Positions 24,431 to 63,731 are shown, numbered from the stretch's first letter. The stretch: 64,000 nucleotides of DNA from Coraliomargaritaceae bacterium (GCA_965656495.1 CBFHKU010000002.1:96001-160000); one strand, 5' to 3'. Numbers and translations: made by a program. The notes: generated from the sequence alone by a model not told the origin.

Positions 24431-27400
24431 ATGCAAACGAACCCCTCCACCTCTACGTTTCTTCACAAGCCTTTTACCCTCATTGTAGTTGGGTCGCTAT
24501 TACTCGCGTCCATTGCGCAAGCACAAACCACGCTGGACTGGACTGGTCGCATCAGAGGTACTGACTCGGGTCCATGGTCCATTGGAATACAAAATACCGC
24601 CGGCACTCCCTCCTATGGCACTATCAGCGGAGGCGACATTCCGGGGTTGACTGGGTCCTTCAGCGAAACAGACGACGTTTCATTAACCCTCACCCTTCAG
24701 GGGCTCACCAATTTCAATCCAACTGATTTTACCAGCGGAACCTCGATACAAATTAATGGCAATAATAGTGGAGCTTCAATTGGTAGCAACGAGGGCATTC
24801 TGTTCACGCTGGATCTTTCAAATCTGGATGCGGACCAGGGGCTCGAGATCTCGGCATTCACCTCTAATGACAGCAGCTCCCTGACGATTTATTTTAACCA
24901 GGAGCGTATTAGCAACGCCGAGCAATTCAGTGGCCTCACCGCCATCGATGGCGATCAAATCGCCTTTGTCGCGGAAGCTGGCAGCGCACGCCTGCAAACC
25001 CTCACACTCGACATTGTTCCCTATACCCCACCAGTCCCCATCGAGCCGATTCAGACCTTGAACGCAAGCATCACGGACAGCATCACGGGATCAGACCCCG
25101 TCTCCAGTTGGGCAGACCAATCGGGCAACGGTAACAATGCGCTACCAGAGATCGGCAGCGTGGCTTACCCTAGCACTTCACTTTTTGCAAACGACAAACC
25201 CGGTATCGATTTCGGAAGTGGGCGCAATAGTATTGAGCTCTTCTCTGCCTCGGAGTCGGACGCTTGGCTCAATCAGTCGAGCGATTCGAACGGCTTTGCC
25301 ATCCTGGTCTCGTTCAAATGCGAAGAAATCGTAACGGGAGTCTTTAATGACCTCCTGGGTAATTCAACCGACGGCACTACAGGCCTGCAACTCGGCTACA
25401 CTGCAGGCGGACAGATTCAAGTAATCCTGGACGGAACCACTCTATCGGCCGACTCCTCTGCCAACATTCAAGCAGGCGGGAATGCTGTCGTAGCGGTCAA
25501 CTACGATGCCGCCACGAATACCCTCTCCCTCTGGAACTCCATTACCGGTGACTTGAAAAACGCAACTGTAAACGCAGCCGATTTTTCAACGAGTCAGCCC
25601 GTTACCGCCGGGAGTATCAATGCCCCTAGCCAATATATCAACGGGCTTATCGGAGCCATTCAAGTGTTTGATCAATCGCTCGACGAGGAGCTATTCGCGG
25701 ATAAACGCATCGCCTTCACGAGCGACTGGATTCACCGCCCCAACATTATTCTAATCTTTGTCGACGACATGCCCTGGTATGACACTCCGGTTGCCATGGA
25801 TGAGCGCATGCCGAACTCCTATCGTGCCGCCCTGCGTCGCCTCGAAATTGATGGTGTGCCCTACGAGTGGAACATCACGCGTCTCGCTGAGGAGGGCATG
25901 ACTTTCATGAATGGCTACGCGAGTGCACCTCAATGCACCCCAACTCGCGCATCCCTACAAACGGGCCAAACGACCGCCCGCAATAAAGTCGGGGTCAACG
26001 GTGCAAACTGGGGTGAATATAGAGAAACCATTAAAGTAGACGGTGTAGAAGTCCCCAACCCGTTTCCAGTCAAAGAGAATGGCATAGACTTTCCGCTGAA
26101 GGTGCCCATGATTCCTCAAGTCTTGGCACCATTGGGATACAAATGTGCGCATTATGGTAAATGGCATATCGAGCCCGCTCCAGATGTAGCTGGCTATGTC
26201 GCCAGTGATGGTAACACCAATAATGGCGAGGGCACCCCTGACGATCCTAACAATCCGAAGCAAATCACGCTGATAACCGATGATGCGATCAAATTCATTA
26301 CAAAGTGGCACGACGCCAAACACCCCTTCTATATACAACTTTCACACTATGCAGTCCACCGCGAATTCCAGTCGCTGGATACCTCTAAAGCGCTCTTCAT
26401 AAACGACGAAGCGGTCAACAGCAATCAGACAGACGCCACCTACTTAGGAATGGTCTACGACCTGGACCAAGCCTTGGGGCGATTGATGGCGCATCTTGAA
26501 TTGCTGGGAATTTATGACAATACCTACATCATTTTCACCGCTGATAATGGGGACCGTGCGAACGTATCATTCGATGAAATGAAGGAGCCCTTCTATGGAG
26601 ACAAATGGATGCTTTGGCAGCTTGGGATTCGTGTCCCACTCATTATCAGTGGCCCTGGTGTAGTCCAGGGTAGCCGGACTCCATTCAACGCGGTCACTTA
26701 CGATTTCCTTCCGACCTATTTCGAATGGGCCGGCGGCGATCCCAGCACGCTAGAAAATATCGACGGCATCAGCTTAAAAGGACTGCTCGAAGGCGAGAGC
26801 CAATCCGAGGAAAGAGTCAACCGCTCCCTCTACTTCCACTACCCACACTACCGAAACTCGATGCCCATGTCCGCCGTGGTCCAGGGCAAGTGGAAGCTAC
26901 TACGCGCCTGGGATGGAGAAATACGCATCGACGATCATCAGATCAGTGATCGTGACATGCTCTTTGATCTCTCAGTCGACCCCGGCGAATTTCACAACCT
27001 GAACAGCAATGATTCATCGCAAGAATTGAAGGATAAGGCGATCGAACTCGCCAATGATTTGGATATATACCTTGGGGGTGTCGAAGCCTGGACCCCTTTG
27101 GATAATTCAAACGCCTATAATGCGGACGGCGGTGCGACCTTCGACGCTTTAAAGCATGAATCAAACAACGAGTATTCGCTTTTTGAAGGCACACGTGGGT
27201 CTAATTCCGCACTCAAAGACCTCGACAAGTCCCCGATGCAGCACTGGTTCGACAACTGGGTTGTCGATATTGGCGACGCATCAAATGACTTTGAAGGCGA
27301 CGGCTTAACCAACCTCATGGAATATATCCTAGGAACCGACCCCACCGTAGCCGATGCCGAAAACAGTAGTGCGCTCCCAAGGATGGTCAAAAGCGACGAG

Positions 27401-27598
27401 GGAATCGAATTCCAATTCACCACTCGCTACAATCCCGGTGCAGTCTCCGCTAAAGCCCAGCATAAGCAGACGCTTGCCGACGACTGGGAGGACATTACCG
27501 CAACAACCATAGACTTGGGAGCGCTGTTGCAGACAGAGAGCGTTCCGGCACCAACCGGAGACTCCGGTTTCTTTCGCATCAAGATCACAACTCCGTAG
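24431..27598 (+). CDS. Multidomain secreted S1 sulfatase: two N-terminal beta domains (second LamG/ConA-like) + sulfatase + C-terminal module
   Basis: Signal peptide; VSSWADQSGNGN; RPNIILIFVDD, CTPTR, YGKWH; C-terminal DFEGDGLTNLMEYILGTDP...GFFRIKITTP. Confidence 0.88.
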   Translation: MQTNPSTSTFLHKPFTLIVVGSLLLASIAQAQTTLDWTGRIRGTDSGPWSIGIQNTAGTPSYGTISGGDIPGLTGSFSETDDVSLTLTLQGLTNFNPTDFTSGTSIQINGNNSGASIGSNEGILFTLDLSNLDADQGLEISAFTSNDSSSLTIYFNQERISNAEQFSGLTAIDGDQIAFVAEAGSARLQTLTLDIVPYTPPVPIEPIQTLNASITDSITGSDPVSSWADQSGNGNNALPEIGSVAYPSTSLFANDKPGIDFGSGRNSIELFSASESDAWLNQSSDSNGFAILVSFKCEEIVTGVFNDLLGNSTDGTTGLQLGYTAGGQIQVILDGTTLSADSSANIQAGGNAVVAVNYDAATNTLSLWNSITGDLKNATVNAADFSTSQPVTAGSINAPSQYINGLIGAIQVFDQSLDEELFADKRIAFTSDWIHRPNIILIFVDDMPWYDTPVAMDERMPNSYRAALRRLEIDGVPYEWNITRLAEEGMTFMNGYASAPQCTPTRASLQTGQTTARNKVGVNGANWGEYRETIKVDGVEVPNPFPVKENGIDFPLKVPMIPQVLAPLGYKCAHYGKWHIEPAPDVAGYVASDGNTNNGEGTPDDPNNPKQITLITDDAIKFITKWHDAKHPFYIQLSHYAVHREFQSLDTSKALFINDEAVNSNQTDATYLGMVYDLDQALGRLMAHLELLGIYDNTYIIFTADNGDRANVSFDEMKEPFYGDKWMLWQLGIRVPLIISGPGVVQGSRTPFNAVTYDFLPTYFEWAGGDPSTLENIDGISLKGLLEGESQSEERVNRSLYFHYPHYRNSMPMSAVVQGKWKLLRAWDGEIRIDDHQISDRDMLFDLSVDPGEFHNLNSNDSSQELKDKAIELANDLDIYLGGVEAWTPLDNSNAYNADGGATFDALKHESNNEYSLFEGTRGSNSALKDLDKSPMQHWFDNWVVDIGDASNDFEGDGLTNLMEYILGTDPTVADAENSSALPRMVKSDEGIEFQFTTRYNPGAVSAKAQHKQTLADDWEDITATTIDLGALLQTESVPAPTGDSGFFRIKITTP

Positions 27599-27720
27599 GT
27601 CAAACAGTTACCGCTGAAATTACTGGTTTGTTTTGGCGTCGCCAGACACTTGCATCCGCAAGGTCTATCCTTTTCTTAAAAATAACCAATGCTTACCAAC
27701 TCATTCACCCAGAATCCGAG

Positions 27721-27785
27721 TTGGCGGATTTCGCATTCCTTTTGGCGTATAAAACCAAGTAAATCACACTGCTATATGGGATGAT
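27721..27785 (+). promoter_or_regulatory. Regulon promoter cassette, copy 2
   Basis: TTGGCG(27721)-N15-TTGGCG(27742)-N7-CCAAG(27755)-N17-TGG-GATGAT. Confidence 0.82.
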
Positions 27786-27902
27786 AGCTAATTCATAAAA
27801 GCCACCACCCCAAGCCACGCTATTCATCAAAGACGAAGAAGCATTTTTTACTCAAGCTCCAGCGGCGCGGCAACTTCTCACGCAATTTTTAAATCTCACA
27901 CT

Positions 27903-29573
27903 ATGTACATGAATTCCTGCCTCAAATCCACCTGCGGTAATCTGCGGATCATACTCTTAATAGTTGTCACATTCGCCCTATCCATTGCTGGCCTGAGCAA
28001 ACTCGCTGCTAGTGCGACCAAGCAGCCTAACATCATCTTCTTCCTGGTCGATGACTATGATAAGCCCGAAACCAGTCCTTACGGCGGCAATGTGCTCACC
28101 CCAAACCTCGACCGCCTCGCACGCGAGGGCATGCTTTTTAATAATGCCTACGTAACCAGCACTGTGTGCACCCCGTCCCGTTACACGATGCTAACCGGGC
28201 GCTATGCCGGGTCATCGCATTCGAATAAATTCCTCAGCGAATTTCCCTTGGGCACTCAGTCCCTCCCCGCTTTCAATGTCGCCCTCGAAGACGACAATAT
28301 GAACGTCGGCGCGGTCTTAGCAAAGAACGGCTATGCCACTGGCTTTGTCGGAAAATACCACGTTGGCCCCGAACATGATGAGGCCTACGACAAAAAGCAT
28401 GGCATTCACCCAATGCCAAAGAATACCGAATACACCGACGAGCTCAACCAGCACAAATTCAACAACGAAAAGATCTACCGCGAACTAGTCAAAGAGCGCG
28501 GCTTCACCTGGGCGAAAAACATCTACTGGGGCAACATGAAGGCTCCCTTCAAAGGCCACAACCCGGAATGGACCACCGCAGCCGCAGTCGAATTTATCGA
28601 AGAACACAAGAACCAGCCATTCTACCTGCACGTATGTTCGACGCTCCTCCACGGCCCCAACAAAGAATGGCACAATTCATTGACCACGAGAGAACGCATG
28701 AGTGGCGAAGGCATACTGGAACAACCAATCAACAGCCAGCCCTCACGTGAATCCGTCCTCAAACGCGTCAAGGAAGCCGGATTGACTGAAGAAGAAGTCG
28801 GCTACACCTGGATGGACGACAGCGTCGGCGTCCTCCTCAACAAGCTCGATGAACTCGGCATCGCCGACAACACCATCTTCATTTTTGTATCCGACCACGG
28901 CTCCAGTAACAAAGGCTCGGTCTTCCGCACCCGCGCTATGGAAGTCCCCTGCATCATACGCTGGCCAAACGGTATCAAGGCTGGCACCGTCACAGATGAA
29001 CTCATGCAAAGCACCGACTTTGTCCCCACTTGGTTTGATGTGACCGACGCAAAGGTTCCCACAAACTACCCGATGGACGGAACAAGCTTTTCCTCCCTGT
29101 TCAAAACGCCCCACAAGCCCTATCGCGACTATGTTTACGGCGAAATGGGAAGTGCCCGCTCCATCAAGACCAAAGAATGGGGACTCATCACACTCCGCTA
29201 CCCTGCAGAAATTGTCGCCCTCGATGGACGCAAAATCAAACAACTAGGAGGTCTCAGCGGGGGTATTTCACGCGCCGGAAATACACATAAGCACGCTTTC
29301 GAAGCTGACCAACTCTACAACTTCGCGCAGGATCCGGCAGAGCAGAATAACCTGGCATACAATCCAGAATACGCCACTCAGCTCAAGACTATGAAAGAGC
29401 TGCTAACCCTCACCTTAAAGCAGTTCCCCGATCGCCCCTATGGTGAATTGGTCCCTGGTGGCAACGCCCGTGGAGCCGAAGCAAGCGAACCCATCCTCCA
29501 GAGCCTGAAAGAATCTTACACGGGGGAATCCAAGGGTAAAAAAGGAAAAAAAGAGAAAAAGAAAAAGAAATAG
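27903..29573 (+). CDS. S1 sulfatase with poly-Lys C-terminal tail
   Basis: QPNIIFFLVDD, CTPSR, GKYH, SDHG; ends SKGKKGKKEKKKKK. Confidence 0.92.
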   Translation: MYMNSCLKSTCGNLRIILLIVVTFALSIAGLSKLAASATKQPNIIFFLVDDYDKPETSPYGGNVLTPNLDRLAREGMLFNNAYVTSTVCTPSRYTMLTGRYAGSSHSNKFLSEFPLGTQSLPAFNVALEDDNMNVGAVLAKNGYATGFVGKYHVGPEHDEAYDKKHGIHPMPKNTEYTDELNQHKFNNEKIYRELVKERGFTWAKNIYWGNMKAPFKGHNPEWTTAAAVEFIEEHKNQPFYLHVCSTLLHGPNKEWHNSLTTRERMSGEGILEQPINSQPSRESVLKRVKEAGLTEEEVGYTWMDDSVGVLLNKLDELGIADNTIFIFVSDHGSSNKGSVFRTRAMEVPCIIRWPNGIKAGTVTDELMQSTDFVPTWFDVTDAKVPTNYPMDGTSFSSLFKTPHKPYRDYVYGEMGSARSIKTKEWGLITLRYPAEIVALDGRKIKQLGGLSGGISRAGNTHKHAFEADQLYNFAQDPAEQNNLAYNPEYATQLKTMKELLTLTLKQFPDRPYGELVPGGNARGAEASEPILQSLKESYTGESKGKKGKKEKKKKK

Positions 29574-29769
29574 AGCGGAGGCTATCATTTGAGGCAGCCA
29601 AGATAATGACTGATGCAACAGTCCATTACCGCGCGAAATCGACGCAGCACATTACGCTCACTCAGCTCTACTGAATTCGCCTTGCCATTCGATCAGGCAA
29701 AACTGTTGCACGGGATTTTAGCCCACCTTGACCCCTGAGTCATGCAAAACAAATGCTACTGCCGCTAAA
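29571..29769. mobile_element. Degenerate MITE-like element
   Basis: Left end TAGAGCGGAGGCTATCATTTG versus right-end reverse complement TTTAGCGGCAGTAGCATTTG; internal TGCAACAGT/ACTGTTGCA inverted pair. Confidence 0.35.
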
Positions 29770-29954
29770 GCACGTAGCTCCTACTGAGCTCCGCCACCGA
29801 TCCCATAAATACGGCTTACGTTTAACCTGAGCCAAAAAGCACCTCCGAGAGCGCCAGATTGTGCCGGCAATCCGTCTCTAAAACCTCCGCCAAACCCAAA
29901 TTTCGCTCTATTCCGGAAGCTTCCACTCGATATGACAATGAACCCTCTGTTTCG

Positions 29955-30020
29955 TTGGCGGAATTCGCATCTTTTTTTGGCGCAAAAAACCAAGTCAATA
30001 AGGTTGATATATGAGATTAT
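29955..30020 (+). promoter_or_regulatory. Regulon promoter cassette, copy 3
   Basis: TTGGCG(29955)-N16-TTGGCG(29977)-N7-CCAAG(29990)-N17-TGA-GATTAT; the extra spacer base lies in a T7 run. Confidence 0.82.
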
Positions 30021-30223
30021 AAAACTCTTTCATTCATACTCCAAGTGCATCCTTAAGTCATTTGGGTGACGGACAAAAGTCCCATACCAAATCACGATAT
30101 TTAAACCTATCGGGCACCGTTACGAGAACATCGCCAAACTCCACCATAAGCACTCCGACCGTCATCGAAATTCAACCTTACCTAAGCCCGGATAGATCAA
30201 AGTCCTTTTTTGAGAAAACAGTA

Positions 30224-31651
30224 ATGATCCCCGCCCACATCAAACGATTCCTTCTCGCATCTGCAGTTATTGCCCAGCTTTTCACCCCGAGTTTTGCCGA
30301 TCCTAATAAGGACAAACTCAATGTCATCCTGATCGTTGTTGATGATCTTCGAACCGAACTGAACTGTTACGGCGTCGATACAGTGCATTCGCCCAACATC
30401 GATCGTTTGGCTCGGAAAGGCATGCGCTTTGAACATGCCTATGCGCAATATCCGGTATGCAACCCAAGCCGTGCATCCTTTTTGTCTGGCTTGCGACCCG
30501 ATGAAGTCGGCATCACCTCAAACACCACTCCCCTACGCCGGATTCAACCCGACCTCGTCACGCTGCCACAACTCTTTCGCGAAAACGGCTATTACACTGC
30601 CGGGCTTGGAAAAATCTACCACCTTAGCCTTGATGAGACCAATGAGCGTGGAAAAAAAATCCTATTCCAAGATCCGCTGTCATGGGACTACTTTTTTGAT
30701 GCGCTCGGAAAAACGACCCCCGTAGGCAAGAAAGGTGAAGGTCGCAACCTGACGGATGGCAAAGTACCATGGGCACACTGGAGAGCAACTGAAGGCGGTG
30801 ATGAAGACCAGCCCGATGGACAAATCGCAGCAGAGGCAATTCGCGTCCTAGAGAAGTACCATGATGCGCCCTTCTTCATCGGCTACGGAATCCACAAGCC
30901 ACACGACCCCTTTATCGCCCCCAACACTTACTTCGAGCTTTACCCGGAGGGCAGCACTCCGCTGGCGGATCAACCCAAAGACCGCATCAAACCACCCAAA
31001 CTCGCAGTGCCAAACGCTCGAGACTTTGCCAATTTCACAGACCGGGAGCGAAGTGAATTCAAACGCGCCTATCATGCATGTGTTAGCTTTGCAGATGCAC
31101 AAGTTGGTAAACTTTTCGAAACAATGGATCGTCTGGAGCTCTGGGATAACACCATTGTCATCCTAATGGGAGATCATGGTTACCACCTCGGCGAGCATGA
31201 CTGGTGGAACAAGGTGACACTTTTTGAGAACGGCGCTCGCTCCCCCATGATCATTTGGATTCCGGAAGCTGCCGGCATGGGCAGATCGACTGATTCGATT
31301 ATGGAATTCGTCGATCTCTACCCGACTCTCACCGATTATACAGGCCTCAAAGCACCTCATAAACTATCAGGTATCAGCCTGAGACCCGTTCTTGAGGATC
31401 CAAGCGCCCAAACAAAAGTAGCAGCGTACACACAAGTTAATCGTGGTGACCGCGTCGGACGCACAGTCCGCACTGCTCGTTGGCGCTACACCGAGTGGGG
31501 CAAAGATGGAAAATATGGCATCGAGTTATACGACCACAATAAAGACAGCGGAGAATACTACAACTTGGCAGAAAATCCCGAACATGCCCGCCTTCTTAGC
31601 CAAATGAAAAAAGGCCTGGAGCAAGGATTTGGCCCGTACAATGGAGAATAA
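30224..31651 (+). CDS. S1 sulfatase, iduronate-2-sulfatase/choline-sulfatase-like
   Basis: NVILIVVDDLR, CNPSR, GKIYH, HKPHDPF and GDHGYHLGEHDWWNK. Likely start ATG 30224 gives a signal peptide. Confidence 0.9.
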   Translation: MIPAHIKRFLLASAVIAQLFTPSFADPNKDKLNVILIVVDDLRTELNCYGVDTVHSPNIDRLARKGMRFEHAYAQYPVCNPSRASFLSGLRPDEVGITSNTTPLRRIQPDLVTLPQLFRENGYYTAGLGKIYHLSLDETNERGKKILFQDPLSWDYFFDALGKTTPVGKKGEGRNLTDGKVPWAHWRATEGGDEDQPDGQIAAEAIRVLEKYHDAPFFIGYGIHKPHDPFIAPNTYFELYPEGSTPLADQPKDRIKPPKLAVPNARDFANFTDRERSEFKRAYHACVSFADAQVGKLFETMDRLELWDNTIVILMGDHGYHLGEHDWWNKVTLFENGARSPMIIWIPEAAGMGRSTDSIMEFVDLYPTLTDYTGLKAPHKLSGISLRPVLEDPSAQTKVAAYTQVNRGDRVGRTVRTARWRYTEWGKDGKYGIELYDHNKDSGEYYNLAENPEHARLLSQMKKGLEQGFGPYNGE

Positions 31652-31801: not shown

Positions 31802-34800
31802 ATGCAAAAAGTAAGCCACCCCGGAACTCGTGCAAATCCCGCGAGAAAAGGCTTCGCACTCGTCCTGAGCCTTTCGCTTATGAGTTTCATACTTCTGATG
31901 CTCCTAGCCTTCACGACGCTGACACGCGTAGAAACGGATTCCTCGAAGACCGCGCTCAATCAATTACACGCGCAACAACAGGCAATATTGGGCTTACAGC
32001 TGGCTCTAGGCGAATTACAGAAAAGTACCGGCCCTGACCAACGCGTCTCCGCACCGGCAGATCTGCTGTCCGCAACCCACGAAAGTCGTGCGAATGTAGT
32101 CGGTGTCTGGTCGCGCAATGATCAACTAATCAATTGGCTTGCATCCGATGCACGAGACACCAACGGCACCCTTAGAACTGATTACAATACCTATGAGATG
32201 CCCGATGAAGAAGGCAGTGACAGTATTGTTATGGTAGGCACAGGCAGCCTCACAAACCCGAACAGCACCGCAATCTCAGCAGGCAAGAAAATCGTCCTGA
32301 ATACCGCAAACACACGTACCTTGGGAAATAACGGAGAACAAACCGGGCGCTTTGCATGGTGGATTGGCGATGAAGGCACCAAGGCAAAGATCAATCGCAG
32401 CAGAGAACAGACCCTAAATCTAGAACGCTCAATACTAGAACTATCCAGCCCAAGCATCACTCGCCCCGATGTTTTAGATGGCCTCAGTGATATCGATTTT
32501 TTTGCGGCAAAGGATGCCAGCAGTTTGATTAAACTTGCTGACTTGGAACTACTCGAAGGTGGCAAAGAGGGTATCGGCAACCCCTACTTCCACGACCTTA
32601 CCACCTATTCAGTGGGGCTCATGGTCGACGTTAAAAACGGCGGCTTGAAAAAAGACCTCTCACTCGCTTTCGAAATGGATGATGCTGATTTTAATGCGTC
32701 AGAATTCGGCTCGGGTGGTTTAAACACGATCAACGCCCCAGGCGTTGGCGAAGTACAACCAATTTTCACAATCGCTGCAAATGGTGCCCATGGCCCCGTG
32801 TGGCACCTCCTTCGTGATTACTATCGGCTCTATCATTTGATCGAAAACCCATGGAATGACCCCAAATTAGATGCTCGGGTCTTTGGCCCCAACATGAACC
32901 ACAGCAGACTGAATATGCCGAGAAAAGCATTCAACGACTCTGCAGTCAATATTGACTGGCAACCAGCCATCGCCATGGCTGGCGGCAAGGCGAAACTGCA
33001 ACCACATACCTTCGGTAAGGATGAGGGGCAGGCACTCATAAGCGATCAAGACAGCATAACCACAGGTCGAGGCGATCAAAAAGATGCAAATGCGGTGATT
33101 GAGTTCTCAATGAATCCTGAAGACTCCATCAGACAATCCAACGGTGATCCACTCAATGGCGGAGGGACCATGCCGATCATGTTGTCTGCAAACTACATGC
33201 CTTACATGATGCGCTATCTCGGTGAAACTGGCGTGTGGTTTGGCACGAAAAAGCCAAAGACAGATGATCCGGACGACCCTGAAACCATGTCGACCTTAAA
33301 CATCGCTAGTCGTGAACGCTTCATCATGCACAATCCATACAACGTGACCTTAGTGCATGGTGATATTGCGATTGATGCCTTTGGTGGTGAGCTCGGATTC
33401 CACCTGTTTGATAAGGACGATAAGTCGATTAAATTCAAAGAAGTTGGAAAAGATAAGGACACCGGAAACAAAGTGCTGGAGGACGTGAAGGACGGCACAT
33501 GGATGCAGGTTTCAAGGCGAAAACTTCGCATGCAAGCCAACGAATTAGAACCCGGGCAGATCATCACCTACCAAGCGAACGACTATGGTAGTAACAATTA
33601 CTCCGCGATTGGAACCGACCCGACATGGCACCACTTTAAAACAAGCAATAAGGACGGAAATGACGGCTGGCTCTTTGAGCCGCCCGTGGATGATGCAAAT
33701 CCACTGACTCTCGCCGTCTTTGGCTCAGATATCACCAATATCATGCGGACAGGAAGCTTAGGGAACCAAAACGAAGTGAGCTTCTCGACGCTCTTTTTCT
33801 CTACCCACCTCAGAGACGGCAATGCGCAAAGGAATGACAAAACAATCGAGCATCGTTGGCCGATGGCTTCAGTCATCGACACTGCGGTCGTTCTGCCTGG
33901 ATCGAAATTTGATGGCACAGATAAGCCATCTGGCCTTGCACATTTCTACCCCGAAGCAACTGACTCAAAGAAAATCTACCCCTATTATCTCTCCAATGAG
34001 GTGAATACATTCACGATCACACCTGCTGATTTAGCGATTCATAGCACGCAGAATAACGCCAAGCCGATGCTCACTCTTGATGTGCTACTCAAGCCAGCAG
34101 AATACGATCGTAGCAACACACGCTACCCCGCCTTCACACGATCGAATCCACTGGCACCCGTCAAAGACAACAAGAACCTCCTCCCGCTGGATGATCTGAC
34201 CAATGATACTGACACCCTTAAGGGCGGCTTTCCAAAAGTCTCGCCAGACATGGCTGTCGATTACACCAACTCCTCCACGATGGGACTCACCGGTGCGTTA
34301 AACACCTGGGGACCGACGGATGGTATGATTGCTCGTGTCGATGCACCCGTGCTCATCGAGTTACCAACTAGCCCAGTGCTATCGATCGGTAAACTGCAGC
34401 ATGCCAACCTCAGTGTGCATGCGCATATGCCCGCACTTGCAGTCGCCAATTCACTCGCATCCGTCTACATTCCACCTGCTAAAACCTACGAAACTTACCA
34501 AAATAACTACGGAAAAAACCGTGTCTTTTACGATTTATCCTACCTGATGAATGAAGCCCTCTGGGATGGCTATTTTTTCTCTAGTCTATCAGTCCCGTAT
34601 GATGACACTGACTTTTATAGCCCGGTAACCGGCAAGATCCTTGAAACATTTAATAATGCCTTTGAAACGGGCACAACGCCACTACCCAATCCACGTAACA
34701 AGCTCTTCACGATCGCTGGTGAAGATTCAAAGAGCGTAGAAGAAAAATTATTCGACGGCAATGCGATCAAAGAAGACGCTTACAAACGAATCGCCGAAAA

Positions 34801-44004: not shown

Positions 44005-44069
44005 AGTATCGCACATACAAAAATACATGGCTTGGTATTTTTCGCCAAACTATTGGGAATTTCCGACGA
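44005..44069 (-). promoter_or_regulatory. Regulon promoter cassette, copy 4
   Basis: Minus strand TCGTCG(44069)-N15-TTGGCG(44048)-N7-CCAAG(44035)-N17-TGC-GATACT. Confidence 0.8.
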
Positions 44070-44248
44070 ACTTCGTAGAGAAAATTCAATCTGAATTAGC
44101 CGCCATAGGTCAAGCGGCGCAAACCACCCAAACCCGAAAATTTCACGGATTTACCGTAGACGGGTTTTTATTTATTAAGCGTTAAGTTTGTATTCTTGAA
44201 TGAGCTGCAGGCTATTTTTCTTCATTTTCGCCCAAGCTCAGGTCCAAG

Positions 44249-47587: not shown

Positions 47588-47652
47588 ATGATCTCACAAA
47601 ACATGAGATCCCGCTTGGTCTAAATCGCCAAAAACCTAGCTTTTTCCGCCAA
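47588..47652 (-). promoter_or_regulatory. Regulon promoter cassette, copy 5
   Basis: Minus strand TTGGCG(47652)-N15-TTGGCG(47631)-N7-CCAAG(47618)-N17-TGA-GATCAT. Confidence 0.82.
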
Positions 47653-47759
47653 CCAGAGACCAACAGCGCCCAGTTTCTTACGATGAAGCGGTTGTATCAA
47701 CCGTTTATACAACTTCCCCTGTCCTTCCCGACACTGATTGACTTAACTGAAACGCGGTT

Positions 47760-51705: not shown

Positions 51706-51770
51706 ATTTTCTCATACTCTGAAAAACATAGCTTGGGTTTTTCCGCCAGAACACTGGCGATTTCGGACAA
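51706..51770 (-). promoter_or_regulatory. Regulon promoter cassette, copy 6 (internal promoter before the GH106 gene)
   Basis: Minus strand TTGTCC(51770)-N15-CTGGCG(51749)-N7-CCAAG(51736)-N17-TGA-GAAAAT. Confidence 0.75.
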
Positions 51771-51795
51771 ACCACGGGATCCTTCAAACCTACCC

Positions 51796-53262: not shown

Positions 53263-53293
53263 TCGGGATGCCTCAATTCTTGGGTTTACCATA

Positions 53294-55240
53294 TCAATCT
53301 TTCCCATGGCGGGCACGGAAACGTTCCTTCCAAGGCGGACGCGGTCCGAAAACACGATTCTCGAGCAACAACTTGTGCTGTCTCTGCCATTCTTCCAATG
53401 TAAGAATCAAATTATCGACCCAACGCACCTGCTTAGTAATCGTTTCCGTGCTGTTCCAGAAAAGAAGCCTTTTTTTGTAAGGAGGAGACAACTGACCGGC
53501 ACTTTGATTACGGGCTGGCACCAGAATATTTTTGGTCATGTCTACATTCAACCCTCCCTTGGCATGAAAGCGCACGGGGCTGGATGCAGTATCATGAACC
53601 ACGTTTTCGGTATAGGCGATGCCGCTGCTTCCCTGATCCGGGTAGATGCCATTATTATCCGAAGCTCCGTTGAGCGGGCTGCGTTGGATATCGTGTATGT
53701 AATTCCCTTTAACCATGGATCCCGGCTGATTTCCCAGTGTGTAAATACCACCACCGTCGCCCAGCAGGAGCATGACACTAGAGATATGGTTGCCGATCAC
53801 TTTGTTGTTTTCCGCCATGGTGGGCTCATTGCTCCACTGCCACCCCATGGAGATGCCGGTGTATGACAGGTCGCGTATCCGGTTATGTGAAATTTCACAA
53901 TCGGCTGCCAAGCCTTGCCAGACACCGACTGCGCCGGCGCAGATATGACCGACCCGTTCAATCAGCGAATCCGTAACTGTGATTCCTCTCACCTGCGCTG
54001 CCCCATCTACATCATGGGTTGAACCGATCATCACGCCATTGCCGCCGCAATCGCGGATCACGCAACCGGCAAGGATAATATCACGACAACCAGTGGCAAA
54101 ACGGGGACCATGTCCGCCAATGCACGTAAATTGAATATCGCGAAGCGATCCCTGCCGCCAAAACCGGGCAGAGAAGGCGGCTTCTCCAGCCACATCAAAC
54201 AGTTTCCGATTCTCGTCTTCCGGTATCATGATGTGACGCTGAGCCGCCTGCGCTCCATCATATCCATGCGGATGCAGATGGTATGCCACATGACGTATCG
54301 CAAACTGACTGAAATAAAGATTAACAACCGGTGCTTCAGCAGTGCCCACTATGTTAATCAGGCTGCTTGTCCGAGGAATAACCAGTTGGGTCTGCGAAAC
54401 CTTTTCTCCTGCCCGTGGGCGATAAACCAGCTCGCGCGTCAAAGCATCCACCGCCCAGTCGCCTGGCCGGGCGATAAAATCGGGATGTCCCTCAAACCAG
54501 CAATTAAATCTCTTAATGCGCTCGGTGGCAGCCATCGTGTTATGACGATTTTTTTGACCTTCGATTGCCCTGAAGCGTGTTGGACTAGCCAACTCCAGCG
54601 CGGAGCCTTCCGCATTCACTACCCGTTGACGAAACAAGGCCCAGTCCTTCATTACAGCCACTGTGAATCCGGATTTCGGCAACGGCGCCTCTGGGACATT
54701 CAGCAGATGCAGTATACTGTGGTTTGACAGCCCTTTGATCTCCCCATCCGTCTGATGATCCAGCCGAACCAGCGGAAGCATCGGTTTCTCGGCATCCGGC
54801 AAAGGCCAACGGGCAATCTGTGCCCACTGATCATTTACGTAAAGCTGTTCCGGAAGCGGACCGTCGGGCAGCGGGACCCGCCAGTCACCAGTTTTACTGA
54901 CCGAAATATTGGATAGCAAGATCCCCCCACTGATCACAGTATCCGCTTCGCCCACCCACCGCGTATAGCCGTCCCTCGAATCCAGCAACAGCGGATCTAT
55001 CAGGTGATGCGTGCCGCTCTTAAGATGAATGATGAAGGTTTCCCCGGGATTGCTCGAGTGCCATACCCGAGCAGCATCCCTGGCTTCCACAAGACTTTCG
55101 CCTGGAGCGACAACAAGAGTCTCTACCGCCAGCGTATCAATCAATGGGTCCACCACCTCTGCGGGTTGTTTTTCTGCGGCCCATACATTTGCTAGTAAAA
55201 GCAACGTAGTGAGACACAGTAGTTTGAGTTGGATCTGCAT
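53294..55240 (-). CDS. Right-handed parallel beta-helix glycosidase (GH141-like)
   Basis: EQLYVND..ARWP, PGDWA, ISHNRIRDLSYTGISMGWQW and DGGGIYTLG..GIYPDQGSS. Confidence 0.72.
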   Translation of the reverse strand: MQIQLKLLCLTTLLLLANVWAAEKQPAEVVDPLIDTLAVETLVVAPGESLVEARDAARVWHSSNPGETFIIHLKSGTHHLIDPLLLDSRDGYTRWVGEADTVISGGILLSNISVSKTGDWRVPLPDGPLPEQLYVNDQWAQIARWPLPDAEKPMLPLVRLDHQTDGEIKGLSNHSILHLLNVPEAPLPKSGFTVAVMKDWALFRQRVVNAEGSALELASPTRFRAIEGQKNRHNTMAATERIKRFNCWFEGHPDFIARPGDWAVDALTRELVYRPRAGEKVSQTQLVIPRTSSLINIVGTAEAPVVNLYFSQFAIRHVAYHLHPHGYDGAQAAQRHIMIPEDENRKLFDVAGEAAFSARFWRQGSLRDIQFTCIGGHGPRFATGCRDIILAGCVIRDCGGNGVMIGSTHDVDGAAQVRGITVTDSLIERVGHICAGAVGVWQGLAADCEISHNRIRDLSYTGISMGWQWSNEPTMAENNKVIGNHISSVMLLLGDGGGIYTLGNQPGSMVKGNYIHDIQRSPLNGASDNNGIYPDQGSSGIAYTENVVHDTASSPVRFHAKGGLNVDMTKNILVPARNQSAGQLSPPYKKRLLFWNSTETITKQVRWVDNLILTLEEWQRQHKLLLENRVFGPRPPWKERFRARHGKD

Positions 55241-55257
55241 GCTAATTTATCAGTCCT

Positions 55258-57705: not shown

Positions 57706-59160
57706 CTACTTCTTTGATTTCTTATTCTTTTTTCTTTTAGAAGCCATTGGTTCACCGGGCTCACCGGCTCCTCCTTCTTGAAACTCAAGCTGGAAATTCC
57801 GCTCTTCGAGATCTGAGGCATCCCCGGCTGGGCGACTCGTTGATTCAAGCTCAGCCATAAATCGATCCATCTGTTTCTTAAGCAATTCAGCAATTTCCGG
57901 ATGCTCACTGGATACATCGCTGGTCTCCCCGATATCGTCATTCAGGTTATAGAGGGTGCCTGCTTCAGCCGGTTTGTATGCGCCCCAATCCTGTTCCTTT
58001 TTCTTATTATACGGAGTCTGCGTCTTAAAATAATACTTCCAGCCATCATGAATGATCGTCGATCCGGGAACGATTTGCAGATCGCGCAACGCTTGACCAC
58101 TAGCGTCCCCCATCAACTGCGGCAACACATTGACTCCATCGATCACGCGATCCAGTGGCACTTCGAGTCCAGCAAGCACACAGAACGTGGGAAGCATATC
58201 GATAATGCCGATCATCGCGTCGCTTTTAGCATCCGTCTGAACTTTACCGGGCCAGCGTATGATAAAGGGCACACGAACGCCCCCCTCGAAGTCGGTCCAC
58301 TTCCCGTCACGCAAGGGGCCGGTCAGTCCAACATCAAACTTACGTTGCCGTTCAACAGGAGGTCCGTTGTCCGAAGTAAACACCACAATCGTGTTCTCTT
58401 CCAAGCCGAGTTCGACCAAGGCATCCATCAACTGTTCAAACTGCCAGTCGATCTCGTGAATGACATCACCGTAGTCACCTCGCTGAGAGCTTCCTTTAAA
58501 TTGCTCCGAGGGAAAATACGGCGCGTGTGGAAGTGGATCTGAATACAATAGAAAGAAAGGTTCGTCCTTATTTTGCCCCATGAAATCAACTGCGGCCTTC
58601 ACCATACCGGGAGCCTGGCCTGCGGTTTTCTTGGTTGGCACGATGAGTTGTTTTCGGTTTTCAACCAACGAAACATCTTCGGTTCCTTCGGTGGCTTTGA
58701 GAAAGCCATAGAAATAATCAAAGCCATGATTTAAGGGATGAAACGGCTCCCACTCACCCAAATGCCATTTACCAATCAGTGCAGTTTGATACCCCGCCGT
58801 TTGCAACAACTCAGGCAATGTGATTTCAGATGGGTTCAAACCAATCGGCCCATCCCGATATTTATATACAACATTGGGCAATCCCACTCGATGCGCGTAG
58901 GAACCGGTCATAAAAGCCGCACGTGTCGCCGAACAGCGCTGATGAACATAAAAACTCGAGAAGCTCGTGCCTTCTTTTGCCAGTTTATCGATCGCCGGCG
59001 TCGATTGCCCTTCCGCTCCATAGCAACTGACATCACCATAACCGAGGTCATCCGTGAGATAGAACAGGATGTTCGGCTTCTCCGCCGCAGGTCGCACAGT
59101 CTGTTTAGCCCATAAGGGTGTGAGAGCAAACGCCGCAAGCAATAGGTAACAGACTTTCAT
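57706..59160 (-). CDS. S1 arylsulfatase-like sulfatase (CxAxR variant) with poly-Lys tail
   Basis: KPNILFYLTDDLGYGD, CSATR, GKWHLG and FTSDNG; ends SKRKKNKKSKK. Confidence 0.9.
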   Translation of the reverse strand: MKVCYLLLAAFALTPLWAKQTVRPAAEKPNILFYLTDDLGYGDVSCYGAEGQSTPAIDKLAKEGTSFSSFYVHQRCSATRAAFMTGSYAHRVGLPNVVYKYRDGPIGLNPSEITLPELLQTAGYQTALIGKWHLGEWEPFHPLNHGFDYFYGFLKATEGTEDVSLVENRKQLIVPTKKTAGQAPGMVKAAVDFMGQNKDEPFFLLYSDPLPHAPYFPSEQFKGSSQRGDYGDVIHEIDWQFEQLMDALVELGLEENTIVVFTSDNGPPVERQRKFDVGLTGPLRDGKWTDFEGGVRVPFIIRWPGKVQTDAKSDAMIGIIDMLPTFCVLAGLEVPLDRVIDGVNVLPQLMGDASGQALRDLQIVPGSTIIHDGWKYYFKTQTPYNKKKEQDWGAYKPAEAGTLYNLNDDIGETSDVSSEHPEIAELLKKQMDRFMAELESTSRPAGDASDLEERNFQLEFQEGGAGEPGEPMASKRKKNKKSKK

Positions 59161-59169
59161 GGGGACTCC

Positions 59170-60567
59170 TTATTTCGATTTCTTTTTCTTATCCTTTTTC
59201 TGCTTCTGCTCTCTCTTCAACTGCTTCACATCGACAAACGAAAACGCATCGCCCATGCGTTCCATATCGGCTTGGAGCTGGGCATGCATCTCGGCAACGA
59301 CCTGCGCATATTCAGGATTCTCTGCCAAATTCTCCAACTCCCATGGGTCTTTATTGATATTATAGAGCTCGAACTCAGGATGCTTTAACACACGGTTTAC
59401 CTGCGCTTGCGCATCGGGATCTGATTCAGCAGCAATTAGCCATTCTCTCCAAACACCACCAAAGAACTTCGAGCTCTTGGGGTTCATCAAAACATCCACG
59501 TAATACTCCTTCTCCTGCTCAGGGCTCCAAATAAGCTTGTATTCCTTCGTGCGGATCGCTCGTTGAGCATACCCCGCGATTTGGTGAACCAAGAAGGCAT
59601 TGCGGCGATGCTCCGAGGTTTCCCCTTTCAGCACTGGCAGCAGACTTTTGCCATCCACACTCGGAGCGGGTCCACCCGCGATATCGACGATGGTGGGAAC
59701 GATATCGCAATACATGCCAACGGCCTCCGTCACCGCAGGCTTGAATTTACCTGGCCAGCGCACCACACACAAGGCTCTGGTGCCGAAATCATAGATCGAG
59801 TATTTACCCATCGGTAAAGCGGATCCTTGTTCACTGAGGAAGATCAAGACCGTGTCGTCCGCTAGGTTCATCTCGTCGAGCAGCTGCATCGTTGCACCCA
59901 CCTGATCGTCCAGCTCTTCGACTTCAGCAGCATGTATCGCCAACGCCTCGCGGGTCACCGGTGTGTCCACCATGTGAGGCGGAACGACAATTTGATCCAA
60001 TGGAAAATTCGACGGATCCCCCGTCGTCCACGGGTGGTGCGCATCCACCGAAGCGATCACCACACAAAACGGCGACTGCTCGGCTTGGGCATTCTCAATA
60101 AATCCTTTAACGCCACTCAGTTCCCAAGTCGGCGCCTTATCATTCGCATTCCCCGTGAAGCCGGGGATCATGGGAAAATTCGTCGGCCCGTGAAAATGAA
60201 GTTTACCGGCCAGACCAACCTTATATCCCAGCGCGCCCATGAAATCGACCATGTTGTCAAATCCGGCACGTGGCTTATAACCATTGCCATACACGCCACT
60301 GGTGGGCGGCAGTAAGCCCGTATACAATTCATGCCGTGCGGGCGCACAAGTCGCAGCCGCCACTGAAAAGTTCTGAAAGCGCACCCCTTGCGTCGCAAGC
60401 GTATCGATATTGGGAGTCCGCGTGAATAGACCCGCTTCGGAACAGCCAAAGCTGGACCAACTCACGTCGTCCGCCAAAACGATCACCACGTTTGGCTTCT
60501 CTGCGGAAAATAACGTGGAAACGGATAGTAATGCGATTCCAGCGCCGGTTATGAGTGTTCTTAGCAT
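59170..60567 (-). CDS. S1 sulfatase (N-sulfoglucosamine-sulfohydrolase-like) with poly-Lys tail
   Basis: KPNVVIVLADD, CAPAR, GKLH, HHPW and SEQG; ends KQKKDKKKKSK. Start taken as ATG 60567, which follows GAGGA. Confidence 0.88.
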   Translation of the reverse strand: MLRTLITGAGIALLSVSTLFSAEKPNVVIVLADDVSWSSFGCSEAGLFTRTPNIDTLATQGVRFQNFSVAAATCAPARHELYTGLLPPTSGVYGNGYKPRAGFDNMVDFMGALGYKVGLAGKLHFHGPTNFPMIPGFTGNANDKAPTWELSGVKGFIENAQAEQSPFCVVIASVDAHHPWTTGDPSNFPLDQIVVPPHMVDTPVTREALAIHAAEVEELDDQVGATMQLLDEMNLADDTVLIFLSEQGSALPMGKYSIYDFGTRALCVVRWPGKFKPAVTEAVGMYCDIVPTIVDIAGGPAPSVDGKSLLPVLKGETSEHRRNAFLVHQIAGYAQRAIRTKEYKLIWSPEQEKEYYVDVLMNPKSSKFFGGVWREWLIAAESDPDAQAQVNRVLKHPEFELYNINKDPWELENLAENPEYAQVVAEMHAQLQADMERMGDAFSFVDVKQLKREQKQKKDKKKKSK

Positions 60568-60719
60568 GATTTTGTGTCCTCTATTCACCTTATATATTTA
60601 TAACGGATTAAGAATTCGGTTGAATTAGTGAATTTTCTAAAACGGATCCTGTCGACTCTCCGATGCCCCTTCATTTCCAGATTTCAACAGACAGCTAACT
60701 TTCTATCGATCGAAGCGCT

Positions 60720-62177
60720 TTATTGTTTCTTTTTACCTTTCTTCTTTGCAGCTTTTGCTTTTTCCTGCGCGGCCTTATATGCCGCATGCCCTTCATCGAA
60801 CGGCGCTTCGAGTGAATTGGTGTCCAAGTCTTTCTGGAATCGTTCCATCGCACGCGTTAGCGCTTCCACGACTTCAGGGTATTGCGCAGAGACATCGTTC
60901 GTTTCGCCGATGTCCGAGCGTAAGTCATAGAGCCCGGCATTCTTCCCGGTCATCAGCTTAAAGCGGTCGTTGCGCGCAGCCGTAATCTTTGGCGTATTGC
61001 CTGCATAGTAGAGATACTCATGCGGCGACTTCTCACCCGGCAAACACTGCATGATCAGGAAGATGTTTTTGCCATCGATCTTCTGCGGTGTCTCCGGATT
61101 GATTCCTGCCAATGCGGCGTAGGTCGGAAAGATGTCCATGAGCGAGGCCATCTCGCCGGTCTCTTTACCAGCAGGCAATGTCCCCGGCCAGCTAACAACG
61201 AACGGCACGCGCACGCCCCCTTCTCGAGCACTGCCCTTCCAGCCGTCCAGCGGCAGGTTCGAGCCCATCTCAGTATAACCACCTGGATCCGGCTTTGAGT
61301 CAGCCCCATTGTCTGAAGTAAAGGCGATAATCGTGTTCTCCGCGATACCATTTGCTCGAAGCGCTTTCATGACCTCGCCCACTGACCAATCGATTTCCTC
61401 GATCATGTCTCCATAGAGACCGTGTGCGCTATGCCCACGGAAAGAGGCATCCACCGTGTAAGGGTGATGCGGTGTGCCGTGGGCAATATAGAGGAAGAAA
61501 GGCTTATCTTTATGCTCTCCAATAAATTTAACGGCCTCCTGCGTATAACGCTTGGTTAGTTGGGTAATGTCAGTTGGCCACTCGATGACCTTATCATCGC
61601 GCATCAGGATCGTTGAGCGCCCATGAATGCCTTTTCCTTGATCCGCCCAATAATCTTCGATCGTGAATCCGCCCGTCGGTTCAAAGCCATCCGCCACCGG
61701 TAGCTTGTGCGTCTTGGCATCGCCGTGGTTGGTTCCGGGAACGCCGAAGTATACGTCGAAGCCCTGATCCGTCGGCAGATAGCCAACCGTATGCCCCAAG
61801 TGCCACTTACCGATCAAGGCGCTGGTGTAACCTTTTTCCTTCAGCATTTCCGGAATCGTGACGGTCTCCTTCACCAAGCCCGTAGAGGAATTCGGATAGA
61901 CGATCGAACCGACCCCCACACGGAAATTGTAGGCACCACTCATAAGACAGGCACGTGCCGGCGAGCACTTGTGCCGTGCATAAAAGTCCGTAAAGCGCAC
62001 CCCTTCATCCGCCAAGCGGTCGATGTTCGGCGTTTTAATGGTCGGGTGCCCATAGCAGCCCAAATCACCATAGCCCTGATCATCAGTCATGATGAAAATG
62101 AAGTTCGGCAAATCCTTCGCGTATGCAGCTGTGCTCGCGAAGGCGGCTGCCAAAATGGATATTCTTTTTAAAATCAT
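60720..62177 (-). CDS. S1 arylsulfatase-like sulfatase with poly-Lys tail
   Basis: PNFIFIMTDDQGYGD, CSPAR, GKWHLG, FTSDNG and EGGVRVP; ends KAAKKKGKKKQ. Confidence 0.92.
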   Translation of the reverse strand: MILKRISILAAAFASTAAYAKDLPNFIFIMTDDQGYGDLGCYGHPTIKTPNIDRLADEGVRFTDFYARHKCSPARACLMSGAYNFRVGVGSIVYPNSSTGLVKETVTIPEMLKEKGYTSALIGKWHLGHTVGYLPTDQGFDVYFGVPGTNHGDAKTHKLPVADGFEPTGGFTIEDYWADQGKGIHGRSTILMRDDKVIEWPTDITQLTKRYTQEAVKFIGEHKDKPFFLYIAHGTPHHPYTVDASFRGHSAHGLYGDMIEEIDWSVGEVMKALRANGIAENTIIAFTSDNGADSKPDPGGYTEMGSNLPLDGWKGSAREGGVRVPFVVSWPGTLPAGKETGEMASLMDIFPTYAALAGINPETPQKIDGKNIFLIMQCLPGEKSPHEYLYYAGNTPKITAARNDRFKLMTGKNAGLYDLRSDIGETNDVSAQYPEVVEALTRAMERFQKDLDTNSLEAPFDEGHAAYKAAQEKAKAAKKKGKKKQ

Positions 62178-62189
62178 AATTTTCGTTTC

Positions 62190-63731
62190 CTATGACTTCT
62201 TGTTCTTCTTGTTCTTCTTTTTCGTCCGTTTCTCCGATTTACCGGAGTCCCCTGTCGGCGCCTTGCCGTTGCCCAGCTCCGCAACAGGTGGCATCTTCAC
62301 CGCCGGATCAAAGAGGACGTAGCTTTCAGAAGCATTCGGATTGGGCTTGGGTAGAAGCGCACCCACACGCTTGTGATAGGAATCCAGTTCTGCCTGCAGG
62401 CTTTGCGCCTTTTCCGGCATCTGCTTTGTAATGTTAGTGACCTCACCGATGTCCTTTTTCAAATCATACAAATACGGCTCCGGTAGCTCATAAAAATCAA
62501 ACAGCTTGTAGTTGTCCTTAATAATCACCGAGTGAGGCGTCGTGTTGCGATGGTGCGGATAATGAAAGAAGAGCGCCCGCTCTTTAAAACCATCGACATT
62601 ACCGCCGGTCACGATCGGCAGGATACTGACGCCATCCACATTTTCGAGACGGTCTACCTTACCACCGGCAATCTCATAGAACGTCGGCATGAAGTCGTAG
62701 CCAACGACGTTGAGGCTACTACGCGAGCCGGCAGCGATACCGGGACCGCTCATGCTCATCGGCACACGAATGCCGCCCTCCCAGAGCCACCATTTTTCAC
62801 CACGCAGGATTCGATCTTCGCCGTTAAAAAGCCCCTTACCGTTGTCGGACGTAAACACGATGTAGGTATTGTCGCGGATTCCGAGCTCGTCGAGCTTGGC
62901 CATCACCATCCCGATCGAGGTATCCATATCTTCGATCGCGGCCGCATGCGACGCCACTTCTCGAGTAGCAGGGTTGCCCAAGGCTTTTATCTCCGGATTG
63001 CTGGTGTATTTTTCGAGCGTCTCCGGTAAGCTCATCTGTTGGTTGTGCTCTGCATAGTGCGAGATCTGAACAAAGAAGGGCTTCTCGTCCGCGGCCTGGC
63101 GCTCGATAAAGTCGATACTGCTGCGGGTCATGCTGAAAATGCGCTTCGGATCCCTCGGGTCCTTACAGAGGTTCGGGCCTCCCTCGGCATTCGAGGTTTC
63201 GCCATCGCTCTCGTCATAGCCACAGGCTTCCGGGCCACCGCCGTAAACATGCCATTTACCGAAGTGCGCAGTCGCATAGCCCTGCTCTTTCAACACATGC
63301 GCAATGGTCTTAAAATTGGGATTCAGCGAGCCCATGGGCTCTGGCTCAAGAAATGGAGCGCCTTTCGCTTTCTCGATGTAATTGACCTCAAAGGTGCAGT
63401 CCTCACCAAAGTTACCATTCCCACTAAACCGGGTGCGCGCGGCGGTCTTGCCCGTTTGAATACTACAGCGTGAGGGCGCACACATCCCCGCCGCTGAATA
63501 GGCATTGGAGAAAATCATGCCATCACGACCAATCGCATCAATATTGGGCGTATTACGCCACTTCATCGCAGAGGCGGCATAGCCGACCTCCTGCTCGGTG
63601 GCCGTTCCATACCACGGCATGTCATCCACCAGTATAAAAACGATATTGGGCTTCGTCGCTGCAGCAAGCGCACTTCCAACACAAAGCGCAGCAACCATGA
63701 GCCATTGGATATTTTTAGGGCAAAACTTCAT
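62190..63731 (-). CDS. S1 sulfatase with poly-Lys tail
   Basis: KPNIVFILVDD, CAPSR, GKWH and FTSDNG; ends KRTKKKNKKNKKS. Likely start 63731. Confidence 0.9.
   Translation of the reverse strand: MKFCPKNIQWLMVAALCVGSALAAATKPNIVFILVDDMPWYGTATEQEVGYAASAMKWRNTPNIDAIGRDGMIFSNAYSAAGMCAPSRCSIQTGKTAARTRFSGNGNFGEDCTFEVNYIEKAKGAPFLEPEPMGSLNPNFKTIAHVLKEQGYATAHFGKWHVYGGGPEACGYDESDGETSNAEGGPNLCKDPRDPKRIFSMTRSSIDFIERQAADEKPFFVQISHYAEHNQQMSLPETLEKYTSNPEIKALGNPATREVASHAAAIEDMDTSIGMVMAKLDELGIRDNTYIVFTSDNGKGLFNGEDRILRGEKWWLWEGGIRVPMSMSGPGIAAGSRSSLNVVGYDFMPTFYEIAGGKVDRLENVDGVSILPIVTGGNVDGFKERALFFHYPHHRNTTPHSVIIKDNYKLFDFYELPEPYLYDLKKDIGEVTNITKQMPEKAQSLQAELDSYHKRVGALLPKPNPNASESYVLFDPAVKMPPVAELGNGKAPTGDSGKSEKRTKKKNKKNKKS

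Follow-up and report, generated by a model that had tools for sequence, protein, structure and literature searches.

Why should one bacterial locus hold sulfatases of the same subfamilies in two different builds? The question is raised by a 64,000-nucleotide stretch of DNA (the window; contig C2, positions 96001-160000) from a Coraliomargaritaceae bacterium (GCA_965656495.1, CBFHKU010000002.1:96001-160000), whose genome assembly comprises 2.06 Mb in 31 contigs and is rated 99.4% complete. The database names of close homologs suggest Coraliomargarita/Opitutales, within Verrucomicrobiota. Nine S1-family sulfatases, termed here S1 to S9, lie between positions 24431 and 63767, counted from the first letter of the window. 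Little is known of where marine Verrucomicrobiota, which rank among the major consumers of sulfated polysaccharides from algae, put their many sulfatases to work and how they export them. We propose, with moderate confidence, that co-regulated sulfatases of the same subfamilies are made here in two formats: a large form that would be exported or held at the cell surface, and a compact form with a C-terminal tail that would act by its charge.

All nine proteins match Pfam Sulfatase (PF00884; E 5e-35 to 3e-60, 109-204 bits against a cut-off of 25). The formylglycine motif is defined as C/S-x-P/A-x-R near the N-terminus of the catalytic domain, and each of the nine has it in the Cys-type form C-x-[PA]-x-R (C-x-P-x-R in eight, C-S-A-T-R in S6). 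A preliminary description of this DNA had grouped four of them into two pairs, each joining a compact member that ends in poly-Lys to a long, acidic member with extra N-terminal beta domains and a different C-terminal module. This layout is borne out. All six motifs quoted for pair A are present in both S2 and S4 and in no other of the nine, and the same holds for the seven motifs of pair B in S9 and S1. The identity between S2 and S4 is 42% over 505 residues (402 bits) and that between S9 and S1 is 37% over 478 residues (290 bits). The remaining pairs of window sulfatases are 21-28% identical over comparable lengths, except S6 and S8 (36%), a third pair that the earlier list lacked and in which both members are Lys-tailed.

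The long format is represented by S1 (24431-27598, plus strand, 1055 residues) and S4 (41168-43900, minus strand, 910 residues). S1 has a signal peptide, an N-terminal beta region with a LamG-like stretch (about residues 33-435) and a catalytic domain (about residues 436-895; Pfam Sulfatase E 5.4e-35). Its C-terminal module combines a TSP3-like loop with an FN3-like sandwich (residues 943-1053, window 27257-27589, plus strand). S4, also matched by Pfam Sulfatase, shows the same order on the minus strand: N-terminal beta domains (residues 22-277, window 43070-43837), catalytic domain (residues 278-771, window 41588-43069) and module (residues 795-906, window 41183-41518). Both proteins are acidic, with isoelectric points of 4.29 for S1 and 4.33 for S4. 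The net charge of the catalytic core is -28 in S1 vs -13 in S9 and -33 in S4 vs -9 in S2, as calculated on BLAST-aligned cores; envelopes from hidden Markov models (HMMs) were discarded since tails and modules fell inside them. The extra N-terminal beta domains are real, but their typing is weak. The Laminin_G_3 (PF13385) match at residues 285-419 of S1 (23.8 bits, E 5.5e-5) stays below the cut-off of 27.6, and the first 280 residues of S4 match no Pfam family even at E 1. S4 orthologs carry fn3, and the full-length AlphaFold model of S4, with a mean predicted local distance difference test score (pLDDT) of 81, places beta domains at about residues 27-125 and 200-262.

A home-made HMM locates the module at the extreme C-terminus of both long forms (domain E 8.6e-37 for S1). 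Against the bacterial TSP3 family (PF18884, TSP3_bac; cut-off 25 bits), the loop scores 23.7 bits in S4 (E 4.4e-5) and 13.6 bits in S1 (E 0.063). In the AlphaFold model of the S4 module (pLDDT 78.9), a six-strand sandwich follows the loop. VIA-align pairs this sandwich with the FN3-like module of 5g56_A (Z 8.3, root-mean-square deviation 2.4, 69 aligned residues) and with 3mpc_B (Z 8.0), and such Z values are common for small sandwiches. The last 129-130 residues of S1 and S4 give no match to Por_Secre_tail (PF18962), even at E 10, and neither Pfam nor NCBIfam names the combination of a TSP3 loop with a sandwich of FN3-like type that ends in FFR[IV]. Among the matches listed in the literature on TSP3 repeats in Verrucomicrobia, no C-terminal tag is named. 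A hit of the S4 loop to the NCBIfam entry 'Amuc_1099 family pilus-like system protein' is weak and below threshold (21.2 bits, cut-off 50) and was set aside.

A profile search of the genome finds the module in ten proteins, each time at the extreme C-terminus: four sulfatases, two Peptidase_S8 proteins, one Peptidase_M60, one GH10, one Ig-domain protein and one protein without a Pfam match. In a fifth sulfatase, the sandwich is present and the loop is missing. Given that proteases, an M60 peptidase and a GH10 enzyme of this genome have the module as well, the long format is most likely the exported or cell-surface form, which would meet the intact sulfated polymer. The module is kept by S4 orthologs at 61-68% identity and by full-length S1 orthologs at 55-81%. 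Searched against 1.84 billion representative proteins, the module profile returns 52,784 at E <= 0.001, mostly giant multi-TSP3 proteins. The best 150 of these matches include 16 full modules, ten of them within 10 residues of the C-terminus. The nearest ESM Atlas clusters are annotated 'hypothetical protein' and are mostly verrucomicrobial.

The genome also encodes two secretins. One of them (C3:143190-145769) closes a type IV pilus-like assembly cluster, and a module-bearing S8 protease of 1278 residues begins 102 nucleotides further on (whole segment C3:139562-149707, outside the window). The second lies within a pseudopilin cluster that resembles a type II secretion system (C4:142670-149660). 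For this protease, 30 relatives show no full-length ortholog and give catalytic-domain matches at 34-47%.

The compact format includes S2 (27903-29573, plus strand, 556 residues), which ends in KGKKGKKEKKKKK with its tail at about 29511-29570, and S9 (62190-63767, minus strand, 525 residues), which ends in KRTKKKNKKNKKS with its tail at about 62193-62252. S9 may start at the ATG at 63767, as counted here, or at the ATG at 63731, which gives 513 residues. Downstream of S9 on the minus strand lie three further compact Lys-tailed sulfatases, S6 (57706-59160), S7 (59170-60588) and S8 (60720-62177). In these five of the nine, 7-10 of the last 15 residues are Lys; S3 and S5 have plain ends, with neither tail nor module.

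Such a tail also marks other sulfatases of the genome. A profile built from the nine window proteins recovers 69 sulfatases in a set of 1762 non-overlapping open reading frames (ORFs), a density of about 4% that is very high for a genome of this size. With at least five Lys in the last 15 residues as the criterion, the tail is present in 14 of the 69 sulfatase ORFs vs 6 of 1693 others (Fisher p 1.7e-16), and these six resemble cytoplasmic nucleic-acid-type proteins, judging by sequence. The tailed sulfatases are spread over at least seven clades of the sulfatase tree, and ten of the 14 lie in C2:123903-176389. For relatives from other genomes, at least six Lys plus Arg in the last 20 residues were asked for, a level reached by 92 of the 1693 non-sulfatase ORFs of this genome. 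Such a basic tail is found in 104 of 120 S2 relatives, 85 of 112 S4 relatives and 71 of 120 S9 relatives listed, conserved as charge and not as sequence. One database protein related to S4 (P0129, 1093 residues) consists of two fused sulfatase domains with a Lys/Arg-rich tail still at its end. A tail confined to one enzyme class points to a trait that sulfatases share, and their polyanionic substrates are the simplest candidate.

The two endings alternate at one junction. When long and short relatives are aligned, they have a common end of the catalytic domain (...GRPFGEFVPG...QPYxDQLKxLxPxKxGFE). What follows it in the short forms is a linker with a basic tail, whereas in the long forms it is the TSP3 loop with the sandwich. 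Three Bacteroidota-like forms carry a different C-terminal domain at the same junction; two of them (P0188 and P0217) weakly match Por_Secre_tail, the tail of the type IX secretion system (T9SS), with scores (24.2 and 22.2 bits) that stay under the cut-off of 27, and the third does not. Among the 112 S4 relatives listed, a basic tail is present in none of the 11 forms with a structured end (eight with the module, three T9SS-tail-like) vs 85 of the 101 others (p 2.5e-8), and no 20-residue window of these 11 forms holds more than six Lys plus Arg. Both endings on one protein were never seen among the 352 relatives listed.

The ancestry of the two formats was followed in a quick maximum-likelihood tree (IQ-TREE) of 64 of the 69 sulfatase ORFs, five with envelopes shorter than 380 residues being left out. 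Clade B (support 99) joins S1 and S9 as sisters, next to C17_4725. 'Pair' A is really a clade of four (support 98), which comprises S2, S4, C2_174641 and C2_194974. In the genome, S2 is best matched by two short forms, each at 46%, of which C2_174641 is Lys-tailed and C2_194974 has no tail; S4 follows at 42% and is itself about equidistant (41-42%) from the three short forms of the clade. S1 and S9 are reciprocal best matches in the genome, but the Lys-tailed C17_4725, at 36%, stands almost as close to S9. The best solved relative of both S2 and S4 is 9fvt_A (E 2.4e-76 and 6.2e-61), and that of both S9 and S1 is 9fo1_A, deposited as 'k-carrageenan sulfatase S1_16' (E 1.5e-69 and 4.2e-49). Because each pair has a common best solved relative, it is reasonable to place its two members in the same subfamily.

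Relatives of S2 that are 57-88% identical bear names from Verrucomicrobiota, Planctomycetota, Kiritimatiellia and other groups. For S4, the long-form relatives are 61-68% identical, with one from Pontiella, and the short-form relatives 51-62%. S9 relatives are 79-91% identical, and full-length S1 orthologs 55-81%. On the evidence of these orthologs (55-91% for each member in other genomes), the split between long and short forms is old in both pairs. The claim that each pair delivers one and the same activity is not supported, given members that are only 37-42% identical to each other and have such orthologs elsewhere. S1 orthologs occur in three other genomes, all with the module. Two of these genomes also hold an S9 ortholog, 95% identical and cut by a contig end in G041, 79% identical and Lys-tailed in G042; in the third, no S9 match exceeds 41%. 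The long/short pair B thus recurs in two other genomes, and the only complete S9 copy there is Lys-tailed.

Genes of both formats have a common upstream cassette, which consists of a TTGGCG-like half site, a spacer of about 15 nucleotides and TTGGCG-N8-CCAAG. Ten cassettes were chosen by eye from 111 genome matches to a loose pattern. All ten lie within C2:120332-176503 (about 56 kb), 66-258 nucleotides upstream of ten genes or operons. On the plus strand of the window, they are found at 24300-24357 (99 nucleotides before S1), at about 27712-27769 upstream of S2 and at about 29947-30004 upstream of S3. On the minus strand, they are found at about 44021-44078 upstream of S4, at about 47604-47661 upstream of a 3-keto-disaccharide hydrolase of 221 residues and at about 51722-51779 upstream of a GH106 gene. 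The preliminary description had noted the cassette upstream of three of the four paired genes and predicted it for the fourth, S9. The three copies are present, and the predicted one lies at C2:160025 (window position 64025), 25 bases beyond the window end. The last three, at C2:161093, 169040 and 176503, are also beyond the window. The cassette has the look of an operator or promoter that belongs to a single, locus-specific regulon.

In the reading that we favor, the first format (S1, S4) is a large, very acidic enzyme. Behind its signal peptide, beta-sandwich domains precede the catalytic domain, and a calcium-loop (TSP3-like) repeat joined to an FN3-like sandwich ends the protein. The second format (S2, S6-S9) is a bare catalytic domain with a short, rapidly evolving Lys/Arg tail. 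This tail most likely acts through its charge and would keep the enzyme on sulfated, polyanionic glycans, on the anionic envelope or on both; it would not be a sorting signal. Through the common cassette, both formats would be switched on together. It is plausible, from the features described, that the two formats work in different places, and the tail may serve substrate tethering, envelope tethering or both. The earlier proposal of deployment to two compartments survives in part. The best solved relative common to each pair, the common cassette, the alternation of endings, the presence of the module on other secreted polymer-attacking enzymes and the recurrence of pair B speak for it, but its premise of the same activities and its use of the tail as a general address are not supported.

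Several points weigh against this reading. The locations of both formats and the binding partner of the tail are what we infer from sequence. The endings are indeed mutually exclusive across the nine window sulfatases, as claimed earlier, but not beyond chance (P 0.17), and a genome-wide test on the 69 sulfatase ORFs is not significant either (P 0.31). Since the 11 structured-end forms amount to about two clades, few independent events underlie the alternation. Four sulfatase clades include module-bearing members, and in two of them the closest relatives have no tail; C2_194974, a short member of clade A, is tail-less as well. The long form of S4 was not found across 40 relative genomes searched with S4 as the query (at most 22 candidates scored per genome). 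Furthermore, the module is not strictly terminal: more than 10 residues separate six of the 16 full modules from the end of the protein, and three copies occur in a single protein. Such internal and repeated modules mean that an adhesive or spacer domain would fit as well as a sorting tag. The module fold has no Foldseek match in the PDB at E <= 0.001 and is a generic FN3 sandwich. Finally, for verrucomicrobial fucoidan degraders, a published report suggests that extracellular hydrolysis frees monosaccharides (PMC13668718); if so, the compact enzymes may act outside the cell too.

An alternative explanation, unlikely in our estimation, is that the formats do not differ in compartment at all. 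The tail would then be a minimal, charge-based binder of polyanions, and the LamG-like, FN3-like and TSP3 domains of the long forms would do the same, so that the endings are redundant. The restriction of the tail to sulfatases and its conservation as charge would both be expected from this, as would the tail-less end of S5, an exo-type enzyme. The solved relative of pair A is an endo-acting polymer sulfatase (PMC13063451), and the basic domain of human Sulf1/2 is needed for endo-activity on heparan sulfate and not on small substrates (PMC3890690). However, the T9SS-tail-like forms, which have no added binding domain, also have no basic stretch, and other enzymes of the locus that meet the same polyanion do without a tail. 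Moreover, the cores of the long forms are markedly more acidic, which points to a different environment.

A bolder reading treats tail and module as interchangeable localization devices on one junction. The module would be the counterpart of the T9SS C-terminal domain in Verrucomicrobiota or the wider Planctomycetota-Verrucomicrobiota-Chlamydiota (PVC) group and would reach the surface via a secretin pathway. The cationic tail would hold back the compact paralogs, either at the anionic envelope or on sulfated oligosaccharides that have been imported, and one regulon would deploy one subfamily both outside and inside the cell. We regard this as a tentative idea and rather improbable.

The strict two-address system of the preliminary description, in which poly-Lys retains an enzyme in the periplasm, the TSP3/FN3 module exports it to the surface or beyond, and the same activity is thereby sent to two compartments, appears decidedly unlikely. 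It draws on the alternation of endings at one junction and their separation in all relatives listed, on the weak T9SS-tail matches at the same position in the Bacteroidota-like homologs, on the cassette common to both pairs and on the presence of the module on other exoenzymes. Nevertheless, the tail is found on none of the 346 non-sulfatase ORFs with a crude signal peptide, and therefore it is not a general periplasmic address. Nor would one be needed, as residence in the periplasm requires no further signal after Sec export. As an 'address' in any general sense, the Lys tail is thus unlikely. The members of each pair, at 37-42% identity, belong to separate old orthologous groups, and the module can be internal or repeated.

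It is very improbable that the tail serves biogenesis, with a cationic C-terminus slowing release or Sec translocation so that the formylglycine-generating enzyme (FGE) modifies a still unfolded chain. This would account for the sulfatase specificity, and the genome has two FGE-family matches, but all sulfatases need maturation and only 14 of the 69 ORFs carry the tail, which moreover lies about 400 residues downstream of the modified Cys. That the tails are artefacts, whether of chance, of slippage tracts or of low-complexity read-through, is scarcely credible: they do consist of A-rich, low-complexity sequence at gene ends, yet they are kept in 57-91% identical orthologs across several phyla, their enrichment in sulfatases is strong (p 1.7e-16), and their AAA:AAG ratio (62:65) is like that of the gene bodies (170:183).

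The remaining genes of the locus give a view of its substrate. Among the sulfatases with neither ending, S3 (30062-31651, plus strand) has 6hhm_A as its best solved relative, and S5 (51796-53355, minus strand) is near the solved N-acetylglucosamine-6-sulfatase 5g2v_A (E 1.7e-142). The listed TTG start of S3 puts about 55 residues ahead of a signal-peptide-like stretch (MIPAHIKRFLLASAVI...), and the true start is probably the internal Met of that stretch. A GH106 rhamnosidase, beta-helix proteins, 3-keto-disaccharide hydrolases, GFO/IDH/MocA oxidoreductases and a Plug-domain receptor are interspersed with the sulfatases, and an L-rhamnose symporter and an AraC regulator lie upstream. The locus looks like one that targets a sulfated, rhamnose-containing polysaccharide. 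Between them, the segments 7987-24060 and 36426-56544 hold the symporter, AraC and ROK regulators, several GFO/IDH/MocA oxidoreductases, two 3-keto-disaccharide hydrolases, xylose-isomerase-like TIM barrels and the GH106 gene. This gene set suggests an oxidative (3-keto-glycoside) route beside hydrolysis of a sulfated rhamnan-like glycan. On the plus strand at 31802-35632 lies an ORF of 1276 residues without a Pfam match; its sole match, weak and N-terminal, is to the NCBIfam entry 'Verru_Chthon cassette protein A' (19 bits, cut-off 332).

A division of labor between surface and periplasm is textbook knowledge for Bacteroidota. Verrucomicrobiota are, to our knowledge, a phylum without T9SS. 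Should the two endings distinguish outer from inner enzymes, sequence alone would reveal in which order a sulfated glycan is attacked, and the module would be a candidate tag for export or anchoring in this phylum. Relative to the Bacteroidota layout, two things differ: the module has no name, and no Lys-rich or polylysine C-terminus on sulfatases was found among the papers listed from the literature searched as full text, a body from which subscription journals were mostly missing. The accessible parts of PMC11685898 and PMC13668718 mention neither such tails nor the location of sulfatases.

The closest layout is that of surface endo-enzymes and periplasmic exo-enzymes in Bacteroidota, as in a sulfated-mannan locus whose S1_51 endo-sulfatase PbSulf1-GH195 has a T9SS domain and a predicted place at the outer membrane (PMC13063451). 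As in that polysaccharide utilization locus of Bacteroidota, the sulfatase of the subfamily nearest pair A would be sent outward by a C-terminal domain, with others periplasmic and all within one co-regulated locus. In contrast, the host here is verrucomicrobial, the outer ending is a TSP3-like loop and FN3-like sandwich without a Por_Secre_tail match, and the putative inner format bears a cationic tail, of which the accessible part of PMC13063451 makes no mention. The loop itself resembles the bacterial TSP3 repeat (PF18884) in its pattern DxDxDGxxxxxEYxxGTxP, with a near-threshold 23.7 bits for S4. It differs in that S1 and S4 both score below 25 bits and that just one repeat is present, joined to an FN3-like sandwich at the terminus.

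The tail invites comparison with the hydrophilic domain of the human extracellular endosulfatases Sulf1 and Sulf2. This domain contains 12 consecutive basic residues, is required for endo-activity on heparan sulfate, for binding of the polyanionic glycan and for retention at the cell surface, and is dispensable for small substrates (PMC3890690). Like it, the bacterial tail is a strongly basic, non-catalytic appendage on an S1-family sulfatase. Unlike the long internal insert of Sulf1/2, the bacterial tails are C-terminal extensions of 10-40 residues with no sequence relation to it. By analogy with the Sulf1/2 basic domain, the tail, which is easily lost in expression constructs, may be needed by these enzymes on polymeric substrate.

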